From Escherichia phage KarlSchell_Bas89: 64,000 nt of DNA. A program made the position numbers and the translations under genes. The notes under the pieces were generated by a model. It was not told the origin of the DNA and did not search any database. It saw only the letters and a program-made list of their open reading frames with translations. Of this stretch, positions 4,100 through 41,969 are shown piece after piece. The stretch is from the sequence record PQ850613.1. One strand, written 5' to 3'. Numbering within the stretch: position 1 is the stretch's first letter; each line of letters starts with the position of its first letter.

Positions 4100-5181
4100 T
4101 GCCACAAGATAATTATATTGACCCGAACGATTTTAAATCTTTCCTCCAACTGGATGACCTGAAAGGTTCCTTCAAAGAAGAACTTGGTCGATTAGAATCT
4201 GAACAAGAGCCAGAAGTGGACATTGACGAAGACTTCCCTGAATCTCAGGCTGATGACTTCGACATTGACACCGACCTTCTCGGCAAAGGCGATACGCTAG
4301 CGTTCGAAGATGAAGATGGATGGGAAGATGAAGAAGAAACGGAAGACGAAGCAGATGAGACTGATGATGTTGTCGAGGATGACGAATCAGATGAGTCCAG
4401 TGATGCTGAACACGAAGAAACAGCTGACGAGGATGTAGACTACGAAGACGGCGACGTCTACGATGTTGACTACGAAACCGTTATCACTCTTCCGGATGGT
4501 CGTGAAATGACAATCGAAGAATTGTCTAACGGCTACTTAACTGGTTCAGCGATGACCGAACGAGAAGAAACTCTCCAACGTCATGTTGAAGCTTTTGAAG
4601 AACGTGTTGTAGGTTTGAAGGATGTATTAGATTTGGCGTCTCTGGAAGCAGACCGTGTAATTGAAGATTACAACGGCTTTGATTGGGACAAGCTCGCACA
4701 AGAAGATCCTCAGGCTTATGTAGAAAACAAACGTTTCTTAGAAAAATATGTAGCTCGTCGTCAGCAGCTGGAAGCAGCTCAGGCTAAGGCTAAACAGGAA
4801 GCGCAAGCTAAAGAAGAGGCTGTATTCCGCTCTAAGAGTGCTGAATGTGTTGCTATTCTGAAGCGTGAGATTCCTAATTGGGATGAGAATCTGTATCAGG
4901 GACTGATGCAATATGCAATTGATCTCGGTGCTACAGAGGAAGAAGTATTGCGGGAGAATCGTCCGTCTATCTTCTTGGCTTTACATAAAGCATACCAGTT
5001 TGATAAAGGTAAGCAACAGGTAATGGCTAAGATTAAACGTCCGGGTGCTCCACGAAAAGTCGTGAAGTCTGATGCTTCTAAAGCTCGTACTTCCGGTAAG
5101 CCAGACAACGCTAAGGTTGCCAAGGCATTTGCAGAGGGTCGTATTCGTCATGAAGATGCATTTAAGTATCTTGTAGATTAA
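4099..5181 (+). CDS. putative scaffolding protein (acidic)
   Basis: Very D/E-rich N-terminal half, coiled-coil character, located between portal and capsid. Confidence 0.5.
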   Translation: MPQDNYIDPNDFKSFLQLDDLKGSFKEELGRLESEQEPEVDIDEDFPESQADDFDIDTDLLGKGDTLAFEDEDGWEDEEETEDEADETDDVVEDDESDESSDAEHEETADEDVDYEDGDVYDVDYETVITLPDGREMTIEELSNGYLTGSAMTEREETLQRHVEAFEERVVGLKDVLDLASLEADRVIEDYNGFDWDKLAQEDPQAYVENKRFLEKYVARRQQLEAAQAKAKQEAQAKEEAVFRSKSAECVAILKREIPNWDENLYQGLMQYAIDLGATEEEVLRENRPSIFLALHKAYQFDKGKQQVMAKIKRPGAPRKVVKSDASKARTSGKPDNAKVAKAFAEGRIRHEDAFKYLVD

Positions 5182-35462: not shown

Positions 35463-35945
35463 TTAGATAGTTAATTTGTGATCTTCCTCCGCTCTGTTTC
35501 TGACAGAGACGGCTTCCTCTAGGGTTGAGAAAGTTCCTAGGTATTTAGTTTTACCTTTAATGTGTATGTTGGCTATGTACTTCCCTCTTGAATTGAGGTA
35601 CACACCCTTAGCCCCTGAGGTGTTGTTAGAATTCAAACCCTTATTCCAAGAGTTATTCTCGTTGTTAACCTCTCTAAGGTTGCCTATGGAATCATTGGAA
35701 GGATTTCGATCAATGTGGTCTATTTGATCTTTAGGTAAAACGCCATTAGCAAAATACCAAATGATATGGTATCTGTAAATAGCTCTTCCTTTCAATCGAA
35801 TAAACACTCTTCCATCCTTTTTTGAAGTTCCTGCCTCATCACCTCGCCTGCATTTTGTTCCGTTGTGAATTCTCCAGAACACTTTCCCAGATGATAAATC
35901 ACAAACAAAGAACTCATCCAGAAGATCTTCTATCATATCATGCAA
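35463..35945 (-). CDS. HNH homing endonuclease with AP2-like domain
   Basis: 'YRYHIIWYFANGVLPKDQIDHIDRNPSNDSIGNLR' plus 'KGVYLNSRGKYIANIHIKGKTKYLGTFSTLEEA'. Confidence 0.8.
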   Translation of the reverse strand: MHDMIEDLLDEFFVCDLSSGKVFWRIHNGTKCRRGDEAGTSKKDGRVFIRLKGRAIYRYHIIWYFANGVLPKDQIDHIDRNPSNDSIGNLREVNNENNSWNKGLNSNNTSGAKGVYLNSRGKYIANIHIKGKTKYLGTFSTLEEAVSVRNRAEEDHKLTI

Positions 35946-37818: not shown

Positions 37819-37834
37819 TGATAATCCTTTTGAA

Positions 37835-38316
37835 TCAATGTGTGTGATTCCAATTTAATCCAATCTGACAGTCAGATGCCAGAGGGCATTCCATCTTGAG
37901 ATACTCACCAGCTTTCTTAACACAAAGCTCTGTAAGCTCTTTTAGCTTTTGTGCATCATTACGGTGAACAGAGAACTGCCCTTCATCGTGCATGTCAATA
38001 ACCTTCGCACAACGAACACCATCACGCTCAATCCACTTGTTAAGGAAAAGCATGGCATACTTCATAACAATCGCACCAGCACTCTGTAAGAGAGTATTCA
38101 GTGCTTTATGAACCATTACCTTGCCTGTTGCATCACGTCTCATTGTAATACGACGACCATCAACACCCAAGATATAACCTTGAGCTGCTTTCTCTGTCAT
38201 ACGCTCAATAAGAATTGCAATACAAGGATTCTCTGCCAAGAAACGTGCTCTCATTACTGCACCTTCTTCAGAGCCTCCACCAACGATAGAACCGAGCTTA
38301 GCATCACCTGCCCCAT
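37835..38316 (-). CDS. DNA polymerase (family A, T7 gp5-like) exon 2: C-terminal palm with motif C
   Basis: 'GAGDAKLGSIVGG', 'HKALNTLLQSAGAIVMK' and 'DMHDEGQF' match family-A motif B (second half) and motif C; frame is open upstream of the track ATG to 38323. Confidence 0.75.
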
Positions 38317-39096
38317 CAATAGTTCAAGCAAAGGCGCTACTCTTTGCTCCGTTCTCTTATGAACTGCTTACAGTTTCCTGTAAGATCGGACTATATCTTC
38401 ATCTCCACCTTTACGTGCTGAGAGACAGGCGCTTCCGTAACACTTGTTACGTACTCCCTTCCGGGATAGTCTCTGAACTTTCCGTGACACAAACTTTTCT
38501 ACATAGATCAATGAACTGAGCATCAGATAGTTTACCTTTTGCATTATTCACTTCCCAAGTTACCCATTGGACATTTCCAATTTCGTAACCTTTCGAATTA
38601 TCCTTCCTATCTAAAGAAAGTTTATTCGGGTGTCCGCTGACGAAAGATAGTGAATCCCCTGTCAAGGCACATTTGTAGTTTTGCTGAGAAAGAAGCTCGA
38701 ATAAATAGTCTTGAGTAATCGTGAACTCAAAACCCCTTTCTCTAGCTCTGTGATGGGAGTTGTGATATCTCTCACGAACCGCTCCACCCCAAGTTTGTCG
38801 ATATTGTCCCATAGCAGCAGATGCTGCACTTCTGTTTCGACGTCTCCACTCATTTGAAGCAATGCGAGCACAATTTTTACATTGACATTGCTTTCCATCT
38901 TTACTCTTAGATGAATTATGGAAACTGTCGAGTGGCTTTTCTTCGCCACAGCTTGAACATATCTTTGTCATAAACACCTCCTTGTGTTGATGTTTATGTC
39001 ACGGCTTAGCTGCTGATTGGCATATCTTTCGACTTAGCTTTCCAGCAATTCACCTGTTTTGCTTCTGCACATTTCTATGCAGTGAACCAATTATTT
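38317..39096 (-). other. group I-type intron (780 nt) in the DNA polymerase gene, carrying a homing endonuclease ORF
   Basis: 5' exon ends in U (39097); candidate guide GGUU in the intron pairs with exon AACU (U-G at splice site); intron ends in G (38317); splicing rejoins FIYAF-NYGAGD and the joined exons total 1845 nt. Confidence 0.6.
38447..38971 (-). CDS. intron-encoded HNH-type homing endonuclease with N-terminal zinc ribbon
   Basis: Own RBS AAGGAG before ATG 38971; 'CSSCGEE...CQCKNC' zinc ribbon; C-terminal 'SLDRKDNSKGYEIGNVQWVTWEVNNAKG' HNH-like. Confidence 0.6.
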   Translation of the reverse strand: MTKICSSCGEEKPLDSFHNSSKSKDGKQCQCKNCARIASNEWRRRNRSAASAAMGQYRQTWGGAVRERYHNSHHRARERGFEFTITQDYLFELLSQQNYKCALTGDSLSFVSGHPNKLSLDRKDNSKGYEIGNVQWVTWEVNNAKGKLSDAQFIDLCRKVCVTESSETIPEGST

Positions 39097-40459
39097 AGTT
39101 AAAGGCATATATAAATGTCTTCGCATTGTCACGAGTAGGAAGACCAGCAAGTCTCTGGTTGTGGGAGTGGATATCACCTTCTAATAAAATGTCACGATAC
39201 ATAACAGCAGAAGCTAAACCACGTTCAGCCAATGCTTTCTTACCAGCGTTACCTTCTGCAATGGCTTCAGCAAGCATGTCTCTACACTCTTTAATGAGGT
39301 AGTGAGCAAGCATACGAAGCTCTAATCCAGAACCGTCATAACCTAAGAAGAGTTCTCTACCAGCTGGTACATAATATTTATACAGACCTACCGGTTTGTC
39401 TTTCTTTCCGGGTTTTCCACGTTCGTAGATAACGTTTGTATTTTTTCGTAAGTAACACCCATCAGGGATATTGTTGGTAATGATGAAAGGATAGTTATGA
39501 CTATCATCTGTGGAGTAGTTAGATTGAAATAAACTCCTACACTCGTGACCAAACAAACCGCGAGAAGGAATATTAACAACAATGCGATGTTTAAAACGAA
39601 ATGTCGGAGTAGCGCAGCTATTAGCTTCCGCTGAGAGTTTACCATCTGGACGTTCCTTATCAATCAGTCCATTAATCAAGCCTAGTCTGTGAGCCGCTAC
39701 AACACGTCTCTTAAGCAGACTTCCCACTTTACCTAGATCACCCTCAAGACCTTCTTCAAGAGTCTCTTCGAGGTTTGTAGGAGCTGTGGGCCACTTGTTT
39801 GAAGTAGCTAATGCTCTCTTAATTTCATCAAAGGTTACAGGTTTCTTCCTGTTAGGGTTCAAACCTAAACCAAAGACATAAGCCTTCATGTAGTTGACAG
39901 TTTTGTGACGGAAGTGCTTATCCAAGAACTTCTTGATATCAGCATCAACCATCTGAGCTGTCTGTCGCTCTTTCTCATTGCCACGCATCCAAGAGTTGTA
40001 CCATTCTTGATACGTTCCACACTTACGCATGGCTCGCTTAATCTCAAATGTGTTCCAAGGCTTCTTAGATGTATTAAATTCTGGAGGAAGAAAACCTTCA
40101 TCCATCAGTGCTTCTTTAACTCGTGCATCCTTTGATGGGTCAAAGTCAACATACTCAACACAAGTAAAAGCTCCACCAATATCTTCTCTCTTTAACCCTA
40201 CTCTGTCGCAATATAATTGAGGCCACTTCTGAAGAGCACCAGTCTTCTTAAAGGGTTTCATGTAAGTAGAGCCATCAACCCTCATCTTAGGTAACAGAGG
40301 AATTAATTCTCTGTCGATGTTAACGATAATCTCTCTGAGAAGGTGAACATACCACCGTGCATTCCTCCGATTAAAGTTGACACCACTCTTCGCTTGCTTT
40401 GAAATTATATCAGCGACAGTCATCTCCGTTAAGAACGGAAGTACATCAGGGTTCTCCAT
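39097..40459 (-). CDS. DNA polymerase (family A, T7 gp5-like) exon 1: polymerase domain through the first half of motif B, no exonuclease domain
   Basis: Motif A 'LGYDGSGLELRMLAHY'; motif B start 'RDNAKTFIYAF'; RBS AAGGAGAGG before ATG 40459. Confidence 0.75.
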
Positions 40460-41166: not shown

Positions 41167-41661
41167 TTAACTAGAGCTTAAAGCGTGTCTGATAGCTGTA
41201 TGGCTTACACCAAACATCCTACCTAAAGCTCTTGTTCCAAACTGAGCAGAACCTTTGACATAAAGGTTTTTAACTCTTTTAACATCCTCTGTATTAAGTT
41301 TCATTCTAGGGTTTATGTTCCTGTGATGGCCTACATTAAGACCTGTATCAAAAGAATGTTGAACATTCTCAGAAGCATCTGCCCACTCTAGATTCTCAAT
41401 ACGATTATCACTTTTTACACCATTCTTATGATTTATCTGAGGTTTGTTTTCAGGGTTAGGTATGAAAAAGGTTGCTATCAACCTATGAGCTTTCCATGAC
41501 CTCCCTTCAAAATAAACCCTAATATAACCTTTAGTGTCTAAGTGGCCAGCCTCTTTACCCGGATGGCTCTTATTCCACTTAAAACCTTTTGAAGATGACT
41601 CTGTGTAAAACAGACGACCAGAATCTCTATCATAAGAGAGGTAGTCGGATATAGGAATCAC
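41167..41661 (-). CDS. HNH homing endonuclease
   Basis: 'HRLIATFFIPNPENKPQINHKNGVKSDNRIENLEWADASEN'. Confidence 0.8.
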   Translation of the reverse strand: MIPISDYLSYDRDSGRLFYTESSSKGFKWNKSHPGKEAGHLDTKGYIRVYFEGRSWKAHRLIATFFIPNPENKPQINHKNGVKSDNRIENLEWADASENVQHSFDTGLNVGHHRNINPRMKLNTEDVKRVKNLYVKGSAQFGTRALGRMFGVSHTAIRHALSSS

Positions 41662-41969
41662 TGACTCAGCGCCCCCTTCCTTCCACCATTTGATTTTCCA
41701 GCTCGATCTCCACTTTTGCCGCCAGCTGAACGATTGCTGCTGACTGTCTCAACACGTAAATTGCTTGACGCATTAGAGCCTCCTGATTTAATGGCTCGTT
41801 TGTGTCCGACATCTTTACCTTTGAGTGCAGATTTTCCAACGCGTTTCTCAACGATGCGACGTGCACGGTGGCGCTGAGCATCTCCGCTCTTACTTCCAAC
41901 TCCCGTTTCACCTCTTGCGATGGCTGTACGTCTTTCTTGTGCATAATCTCTTTTAGCCTTATCAGTCAT
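41658..41969 (-). CDS. hypothetical basic protein (frame choice uncertain)
   Basis: K/R/G/S-rich; overlaps an alternative-frame ORF 41666-41944 on the same strand. Confidence 0.3.
   Translation of the reverse strand: MTDKAKRDYAQERRTAIARGETGVGSKSGDAQRHRARRIVEKRVGKSALKGKDVGHKRAIKSGGSNASSNLRVETVSSNRSAGGKSGDRAGKSNGGRKGALSQ

Follow-up and report, generated by a model that had tools for sequence, protein, structure and literature searches.

The window, that is, the whole stretch of 64,000 nucleotides analyzed here, carries on its minus strand a family-A DNA polymerase gene that is interrupted by 780 nt. Its polymerase region shares 98.3% identity with that of Escherichia phage KBNP1711 (Gordonclarkvirinae, Nieuwekanaalvirus) and 98% with that of phage EP335, and the window therefore comes from a phiEco32-like podophage. 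Read along the minus strand, the locus presents the following features, each given with the evidence that places it.

40459 to 39097, minus strand: DNA polymerase exon 1 (ORF list; collinear with the polymerase CDS of EP335 in start and length)
39096 to 38317, minus strand: group I intron of 780 nt (empty site of EP335; Rfam half-hits; identical ORF-less core scoring 100.8 bits)
39102 to 39083, minus strand: helix P1 (Rfam alignment on the identical core; pair list)
39082 to 39065, minus strand: helix P2, a 7-bp hairpin with a GAAA tetraloop (MFE fold)
39057 to 38992, minus strand: 5' half of the core, with the 5' strand of P3, P4, P5, P6, and the 5' strand of P6a (Rfam alignment, pair list, and MFE fold)
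38986 to 38511, minus strand: block of 476 nt in the terminal loop of P6a (missing from the otherwise identical intron of phage LAMP; holds most of the ORF)
38983 to 38977, minus strand: Shine-Dalgarno sequence AAGGAGG (sequence)
38971 to 38447, minus strand: intron ORF of 174 amino acids plus stop (ORF list, homologue alignment, and predicted structure)
38494 to 38317, minus strand: 3' half of the core, from the 3' strand of P6a to the terminal G (Rfam half-hit, alignment, covariation, and MFE fold)
38316 to 37835, minus strand: DNA polymerase exon 2 (matches T7 DNA polymerase residues 496 to 702 across the junction)

Exon 1 opens with the ATG at 40459 and ends ...TTT AAC T, thus encoding residues 1 to 454 and the first base of a tyrosine codon. 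It reads ...RDNAKTFIYAFN up to a TAA that spans the 5' splice site (AAC U|AA), and the terminus of the exon 1 ORF on the minus strand reads ...LPTRDNAKTFIYAFN, then TAA. Exon 2 starts AT GGG GCA GGT... and extends through the stop codon (37835 to 37837); its frame is open ahead of the first ATG, where it reads GAGDAKLGSIVGG. Joining U39097 to A38316 gives AAC TAT GGG GCA, which restores motif B as FNYGAG, and the combined exons have a length divisible by 3 (1363 + 482 = 1845 nt, or 615 codons including the stop). Excision of the 780 nt therefore restores the tyrosine codon TAT and a polymerase of 614 amino acids, equal in length to that of EP335, with a predicted ligated exon junction of ...TTTAACTATGGGGCAGG.... 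The preliminary description of this DNA had given the insert and its boundaries exactly (39097|39096 and 38317|38316), together with the end of the upstream ORF, the open downstream frame, the restored motif, and the divisible length, and it proved right on each of these points.

The comparison with EP335, which lacks the intron, gives the same boundaries. This phage has an uninterrupted polymerase CDS of 1845 nt that reads TTC AAC TAC GGA GCA GGT (FNYGAG) at this position, and in a pairwise BLAST alignment the window exceeds it by exactly 780 bases at the junction. The empty target sequence of the EP335 type is ...TTCAACTACGGAGCAGGT.... A single placement of the boundaries gives both an exon 1 that ends in U and an insert that ends in G, namely, U39097 / 39096-38317 / A38316.

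A search of solved structures gave a gap-free alignment of the junction region with T7 DNA polymerase (LPTRDNAKTFIYAFNYGAGDAKLG versus LPTRDNAKTFIYGFLYGAGDEKIG), with the R, K, Y, and Y of motif B facing R518, K522, Y526, and Y530 of the T7 enzyme. The split codon is that of the tyrosine aligned with T7 Y530, and it is the equivalent of Tyr766 of Escherichia coli Pol I by the Klenow-chain offset in the same search. It is from these T7 and Klenow alignments that the intron is placed, as had been proposed, inside motif B of a family-A polymerase, where it splits the codon of the last conserved tyrosine between bases 1 and 2.

The evidence supports the view that the insert is a group I intron bearing an endonuclease ORF, with an architecture of the subgroup IA2 type. 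The insert starts AAAUAAUUGG and ends CUAUUG, with omega-G at 38317. When the 476-nt block (38986 to 38511) is removed, the window intron becomes the ORF-less intron of LAMP, with 324 of 324 bases identical, flanks included. This 304-nt LAMP intron scores 100.8 bits (E value of 4.9e-26) on the Rfam model RF00028, twice the gathering threshold, so that the covariance-model search suggested in the preliminary description gives a positive result when the ORF loop is left out (threshold, 50 bits). In the window itself, the ORF in P6a splits the model into a 5' half at 39106 to 38809 (34.7 bits; E value of 3.7e-5) and a 3' half at 38624 to 38367 (48.1 bits; E value of 3.7e-9). Each half alone thus stays below 50 bits, and Rfam returns no hits for the whole window at the gathering threshold. 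At an E value of ≤0.01, these two halves are the sole Rfam hits on both strands of the 64 kb, and both lie on the correct strand within the insert, which excludes chance.

All helices from P1 to P9.2 can be drawn in the intron core. P1 is formed by the exon bases UUAACU (39102 to 39097) and the intron guide UUGGUUCA (39090 to 39083), at intron positions 9 to 14 (G9 G10 U11 U12. A14). The preliminary description had also claimed that the last U of the exon can pair with the G of a GGUU guide and that the intron ends in G. The P1 pair list contains this U.G wobble, between U39097 and G9, and the final G is G38317, at a boundary that the empty site of EP335 fixes independently. In the 5' half of the core, the 5' strands of P3 and P6a lie at 39057 to 39051 and 39004 to 38992, and the loop of P5 is GAAA. 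The 3' half runs through the 3' strand of P6a (38494 to 38482), the 5' strand of P7 (38473 to 38467), P7.1 (38466 to 38455), a GUA linker (38454 to 38452), P7.2 (38451 to 38436), the 3' strand of P3 (38431 to 38425), P8 (38423 to 38402), the 3' strand of P7 (38393 to 38388), P9 (38384 to 38367), P9.1 (38364 to 38351), and P9.2 (38349 to 38326) to the terminal G at 38317. P3 is ACAGGUG/CGCCUGU, P6a is a stem of 13 bp, P7 has 6 bp with a bulged A, and the loop of P9 is GAAA; P10 is weak, with about 2 bp. Introns of subgroup IA2 are recognized by P7.1 and P7.2 between P7 and the 3' strand of P3, joined by G-U-A (PMC3428280). The window intron has this arrangement at 38466 to 38436, where P7.1 and P7.2 are linked by GUA as UCCC[GGAA]GGGA - GUA - CGUAAC[AAGU]GUUACG.

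The unconstrained MFE fold of the 304-nt core has an energy of −95.3 kcal/mol (z = −5.7 versus shuffles) and recovers P2, P3, P4, P5, P6a, P7.1, P7.2, P8, P9, P9.1, and P9.2. Covariation was assessed over four distinct relatives, which are the window intron, two variants of it from metagenomes, and a related intron in a ribonucleotide reductase gene. In these four sequences, 96.1% of the cells in the 91 pairs drawn are standard pairs, and 20 pairs are changed on both sides, compared with 0 to 4 when the 3' partners are slid by 1 to 3 columns. Compensatory changes occur in P2, P3, P7.2, P8, P9, and P9.2, with three covarying pairs in P7.2 and with pair 4 of P2 being C-G, U-A, or A-U across three relatives; P4, P7, and P7.1 are invariant among the four sequences and thus uninformative. 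The conserved core helices P3 to P8, with the P3/P7 pseudoknot, are therefore present with covariation support from four sequences. The Rfam drawing of P3, P5, and P8 was mismatched and was set aside for direct pairings, which are backed by the MFE fold and by covariation. A full-length MAFFT alignment of the introns misplaced the 5' half of the LAMP intron, and a core-only alignment was used in its place.

The same order of genes could arise from a split gene, in which a free-standing endonuclease gene lies between two polymerase halves that are made as separate polypeptides and assemble without RNA splicing. The KBNP1711 record is annotated in this way, with two polymerase CDSs and an endonuclease between them, and split polymerase genes with nuclease genes between their halves are known in other phages. 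In the window, however, the break divides a codon (T|AT) midway through the motif B helix, and exon 2 has neither a start codon nor a ribosome-binding site at the junction, its first ATG being located 20 codons downstream, so that a start there would drop GAGDAKLGSIVGG. Moreover, the noncoding parts that flank the ORF make up a complete group I core under covariation, and LAMP retains this core without any ORF. An origin of the polymerase from two unspliced polypeptides is thus highly improbable, and the intron reading is preferred.

The distribution of the intron is patchy. Among 86 phage records that match the polymerase, the insert is found in 3, which are KBNP1711 (in its GenBank and RefSeq copies) and LAMP, and the other 83 align in two pieces around an empty site. 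KBNP1711 (NC_023593) has the same insert at the same site with 99.5% identity, and its record lists the polymerase as two genes. In LAMP (MG673519, Kuravirus), an identical ribozyme core occupies this site, 476 nt of the ORF have been lost, and the polymerase is recorded as a joined CDS. Compared with these two, the window copy holds an intact ORF of 174 amino acids. The ORF of KBNP1711 (L001, alignment column ∼232) is frameshifted by one extra A in an A-run, CAATGT(A)AAAAATTG, and RefSeq calls a 150-amino-acid “endonuclease” there; this frameshift is either a real decay or a homopolymer sequencing error. The same intron also occurs at the same codon in seven metagenomic contigs, with ORFs 83 to 85% identical to that of the window. 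Several stages in the life cycle of a homing intron are thus captured within one phage subfamily, as follows: empty (EP335 and about 80 others), with an intact ORF (window), with a frameshifted ORF (KBNP1711 record), and with a deleted ORF (LAMP).

The exon sequences next to the intron differ from the rest of the gene. The window and EP335 are 97.8% identical overall and 80 to 90% identical within ±30 nt of the site, and 9 of the 40 exon differences (in 1845 positions) lie within 30 nt of the junction. The polymerase genes of the window and LAMP are about 80% identical as a whole, with about 75 to 83% identity over most of their length and about 97% from −84 to +22, and their intron cores are identical. 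Mobile introns are recognized by patchy presence in close relatives and by co-conversion of exon flanks, both of which are seen here, indicating, on the strength of these sequence comparisons, a probable mobility by homing. The co-conversion tract fits a pattern in which the intron and short exon flanks would move together by break-repair between phages of different genera.

These copies also bear on whether the intron has decayed and no longer splices, in which case the polymerase would be a pseudogene or the genome defective. The frameshifted ORF copy of KBNP1711 shows that parts of the element can decay, but two phages from different genera share an identical ribozyme core, which scores twice the Rfam threshold, every helix is kept, with compensatory changes in the diverged copies, and the exons are intact and in frame. 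The carriers KBNP1711 and LAMP are isolated phages with named host strains, and the polymerase is presumably essential, which leaves a dead intron with very little credence. An intein or another protein-level intervening sequence, which would likewise target a conserved polymerase motif and carry a homing endonuclease, is excluded by the TAA at the junction in the frame of exon 1 and the further stops after it, as the preliminary description had argued, and also by the endonuclease ORF being in its own frame with its own Shine-Dalgarno site, and by the match of the sequence to an RNA covariance model.

Given the boundaries, ribozyme core, covariation, patchy distribution, and co-conversion tracts observed here, the locus very probably holds a functional group I intron with a homing-type endonuclease, both mobile and self-splicing, in the family-A polymerase gene of a phiEco32-like podophage. 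We infer from its anatomy that the intron splices in vivo as follows. The pre-mRNA would fold so that the last six bases of the exon, UUAACU, lie on the internal guide of the intron, with the 5' splice site marked by the U.G wobble. This site would be attacked by a free guanosine held in P7; the terminal G of the intron (38317) would then enter the G site, and the freed exon 1 would attack the 3' splice site. T and AT would thereby be rejoined into the tyrosine codon of motif B, giving the full polymerase of 614 amino acids. On unspliced RNA, translation would terminate at the UAA across the 5' splice site, leaving a product that stops short of the end of motif B and has no motif C. The P6a-loop ORF would be translated from its own Shine-Dalgarno site into a predicted ββα-metal nuclease of 174 amino acids. 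If this protein has the activity and specificity of a homing endonuclease, it would, in a mixed infection, cleave or nick polymerase alleles that lack the intron, close to the insertion site; repair by recombination would then copy the intron along with short flanking stretches of exon.

The intron ORF is equipped with a ribosome-binding site, as had been claimed, with AAGGAGG 6 nt upstream of the ATG at 38971, and it ends in the TAA at 38449 to 38447. Its last ∼20 codons overlap the 3' strands of P6a and P6, the 5' strand of P7, P7.1, and the beginning of P7.2. Distant homologues outside this intron retain the segment ...FIDLCRKV but not the tail VCVTESSETIPEGST, which is modeled as disordered; the frame of the ORF probably just continues into the ribozyme core until it meets a stop codon. 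The codons for DLCRKV persist in the P6a loop of LAMP, and the LAMP intron is therefore likely to be a deletion derivative of an ORF-bearing intron and not an ORF-less ancestor.

The product of this ORF features an N-terminal CxxC...CxxC and a C-terminal ββα-metal-like domain with CALTG...SLDRKDNSKGY...NVQWV...VNNAKG. Its predicted fold contains the β-hairpin and helix of the solved HNH and EndoVII nucleases, with PacI as the nearest structure. Of the earlier description of an HNH ORF, the part that stands is the predicted fold, which belongs to the HNH/ββα-metal superfamily; the part that does not stand is the motif itself, as there is no Pfam HNH match and an arginine occupies the position of the catalytic histidine. 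Searches of the intron ORF against Pfam (E value of ≤0.1) and NCBIfam (E value of ≤1) matched no family, including HNH, HNH_3, and Endonuclease_7, and only 1 of 10 distant homologues touched HNH/HNH_5, with E values of ∼0.002 to 0.004. In PHROGs, the best-supported relation is to family 1035 (“endonuclease VII”; 1.2e-43), with weaker matches to families labeled HNH endonuclease. A match to SdbC in a PDB sequence search (E value of 1.3) was discarded as a chance hit. Relatives of the ORF are found in about 474 phage records at ∼30 to 37% identity, mostly labeled “endonuclease” or “hypothetical.”

The motif common to the 10 homologues is CALTG...S-[LIV]-D-R-x-D-x-x-x-G-Y...N-V-Q...V-N-x-x-K, preceded by the N-terminal CxxC...CxxC. 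Within it, Arg122 (in S-[LIV]-D-R-x-D) is invariant in all 10 and stands at the position of the general-base histidine of HNH and EndoVII enzymes. HNH nucleases carry the catalytic histidine at the end of the first β strand, and the intron ORF lacks it, having the motif SLDRKD...GY...N...N..K. Compared with PacI and other HNH, EndoVII, and DHHRN nucleases, the ORF thus misses the histidine of DH or DHDH and presents Arg122 instead. The DHHRN or Endo VII-motif homing endonucleases (F-CphI family) have a central DHDH, flanking CX2-4C and CX2C, and a conserved arginine and asparagine (PMC6083498). When the intron ORF was considered as a member of this group, the aligned segment was LDRKD, with flanks CALTG and VTWEVN and without DHDH or the flanking CX2C pairs, and membership was rejected.

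The ORF product is therefore best described from its modeled fold as a putative ββα-metal protein that failed the HNH and DHHRN tests at the sequence level, and for which the name “HNH” is only loosely right. The model suggests that the product may well be a nuclease. It could also be inactive or have another role (maturase or DNA binder, for instance), because it has neither the canonical catalytic histidine nor a curated HNH or EndoVII match. If it is an active site-specific nuclease, its general base would be noncanonical. PacI offers a possible precedent for an active site without this histidine, and an endonuclease family that dispenses with it may, if active, supply a sequence-specific nickase.

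Related introns and ORFs are found elsewhere. An IMG/VR contig (L012, 4160 to 4870, minus strand) has a ribonucleotide reductase gene split by an intron of the IA2 type (83.4 bits on RF00028), with the same P7-P7.1 sequence as the window intron. Its ORF belongs to the same His-less family and is placed after P9, in contrast to the P6a location in the window, which suggests that ORFs of this family move independently of the ribozyme. In a diverged phiEco32-like polymerase gene (L008, 2177 to 3659; also L009 and L010), motif B contains apparent twin tandem introns. In all three contigs, a micro-exon of 17 nt, TATCTACGCATTTAACT, separates an upstream intron candidate from the main intron. In L008, this candidate is located five codons upstream of the main site, starts after AAG ACG TT (AAGACGTT), and holds an ORF of 161 amino acids with a BLASTP E value of 6e-10 to the window ORF; its score on RF00028 is only 17.8 bits (E value of 0.049).

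The T7-like Acinetobacter phage vB_Ab_1137_KEN_01 (L018; PP841126) has, at 1986 to 2646, two polymerase CDSs with an “HNH endonuclease” between them. This arrangement is consistent with a group I intron at FA|NQYG, whose position is three codons upstream of the window site. The intron matches the 3' half of RF00028 with 32.5 bits (E value of 2.3e-6) and has a 3' core 75% identical to that of the window. The sites in the window, in L008, and in the Acinetobacter phage show that, across different phages, motif B has been interrupted at three or more closely spaced positions, with three distinct insertion points within six codons. It can be proposed only tentatively, and with somewhat more doubt than confidence, that the ORF represents an uncharacterized clade of His-less ββα-metal homing endonucleases found in introns of different genes and that motif B is a multisite intron hotspot.

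Introns in phage family-A polymerase genes have been reported at site 674 (SPO1, SP82, Bastille, and Pf-WMP3) and at site 676 (phiL7) (PMC3428280). The same source places the introns of PhiI and W31 at site 881, in motif C, in E. coli numbering (PMC3428280). The window intron shares with those of Pf-WMP3 (I-PfoP3I), SPO1/SP82 (I-HmuI/II), Bastille (I-BasI), and phiL7 its IA2 type and its location in a phage family-A polymerase gene (PMC3428280; PMC11878797). These introns are self-splicing and encode nicking endonucleases of the HNH superfamily, and they have in common with the window intron stop codons at or near the intron 5' end and a highly conserved polymerase target (PMC3428280; PMC11878797). 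The location of the ORF in P6a has also been reported for Pf-WMP3 (PMC3428280). Unlike these introns, at sites 674 and 676, the window intron lies at 766, and its ORF has no sequence relation to theirs that is detectable at the Pfam level.

The introns of PhiI and W31 resemble the window intron in several respects. They are likewise found in podophages of enterobacteria and in a family-A polymerase gene, belong to IA2 with P7.1 and P7.2, and have an ORF in P6a with its own ribosome-binding site, a U.G pair at the 5' splice site, and a final G. Three differences set them apart: their insertion site is 881 in motif C, whereas the window intron interrupts the Tyr766-equivalent codon in motif B; their endonucleases have a canonical HNH motif, which the window ORF lacks; and their hosts are T7-like phages, whereas the window phage belongs to the Gordonclarkvirinae. 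Introns at both positions occur together in a metagenomic phage contig of 75.9 kb (L004, 3990 to 4592; also L005), which has the motif B intron and a second intron in motif C. This second intron lies between histidine and aspartate, ATG CAT | GAT GAA, which is the position reported for PhiI and W31, and carries an HNH_3 ORF.

The window intron adds the Tyr766-equivalent site in motif B to sites 674, 676, and 881 of phage family-A polymerases (PMC3428280). A search of the openly accessible literature found no description of this intron or of its insertion site, and we could not find site 766 described before, as judged from these searches and from the sites in one 2012 paper (PMC3428280). The element itself is already in GenBank, in KBNP1711 and, as a joined CDS, in LAMP; its anatomy is otherwise textbook, and its endonuclease is atypical. 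It leaves the knowledge of how group I introns work unchanged. The practical gain is for annotation: the records of carriers list a “split” polymerase plus a stray endonuclease gene, as in KBNP1711, and gene callers will truncate the polymerase.

The surroundings of the polymerase gene show further differences from related phages. Just downstream of the gene, a stretch of about 377 nt that contains a 104-amino-acid hypothetical gene in KBNP1711 and EP335 is missing from the window (37822 to 37835, compared with 4165 to 4543 of KBNP1711). Upstream of the polymerase, the window has an ORF of 164 amino acids at 41167 to 41661 on the minus strand, with a Pfam HNH_3 match of 4.7e-11, within a block of about 490 nt (∼41185 to 41670) that is missing from the otherwise collinear KBNP1711, EP335, LAMP, and contig L004. 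This ORF looks like a free-standing homing-endonuclease gene inserted there. A second free-standing ORF, of 160 amino acids and with an HNH_3 domain (8.3e-10), is located at 35463 to 35945 on the minus strand.
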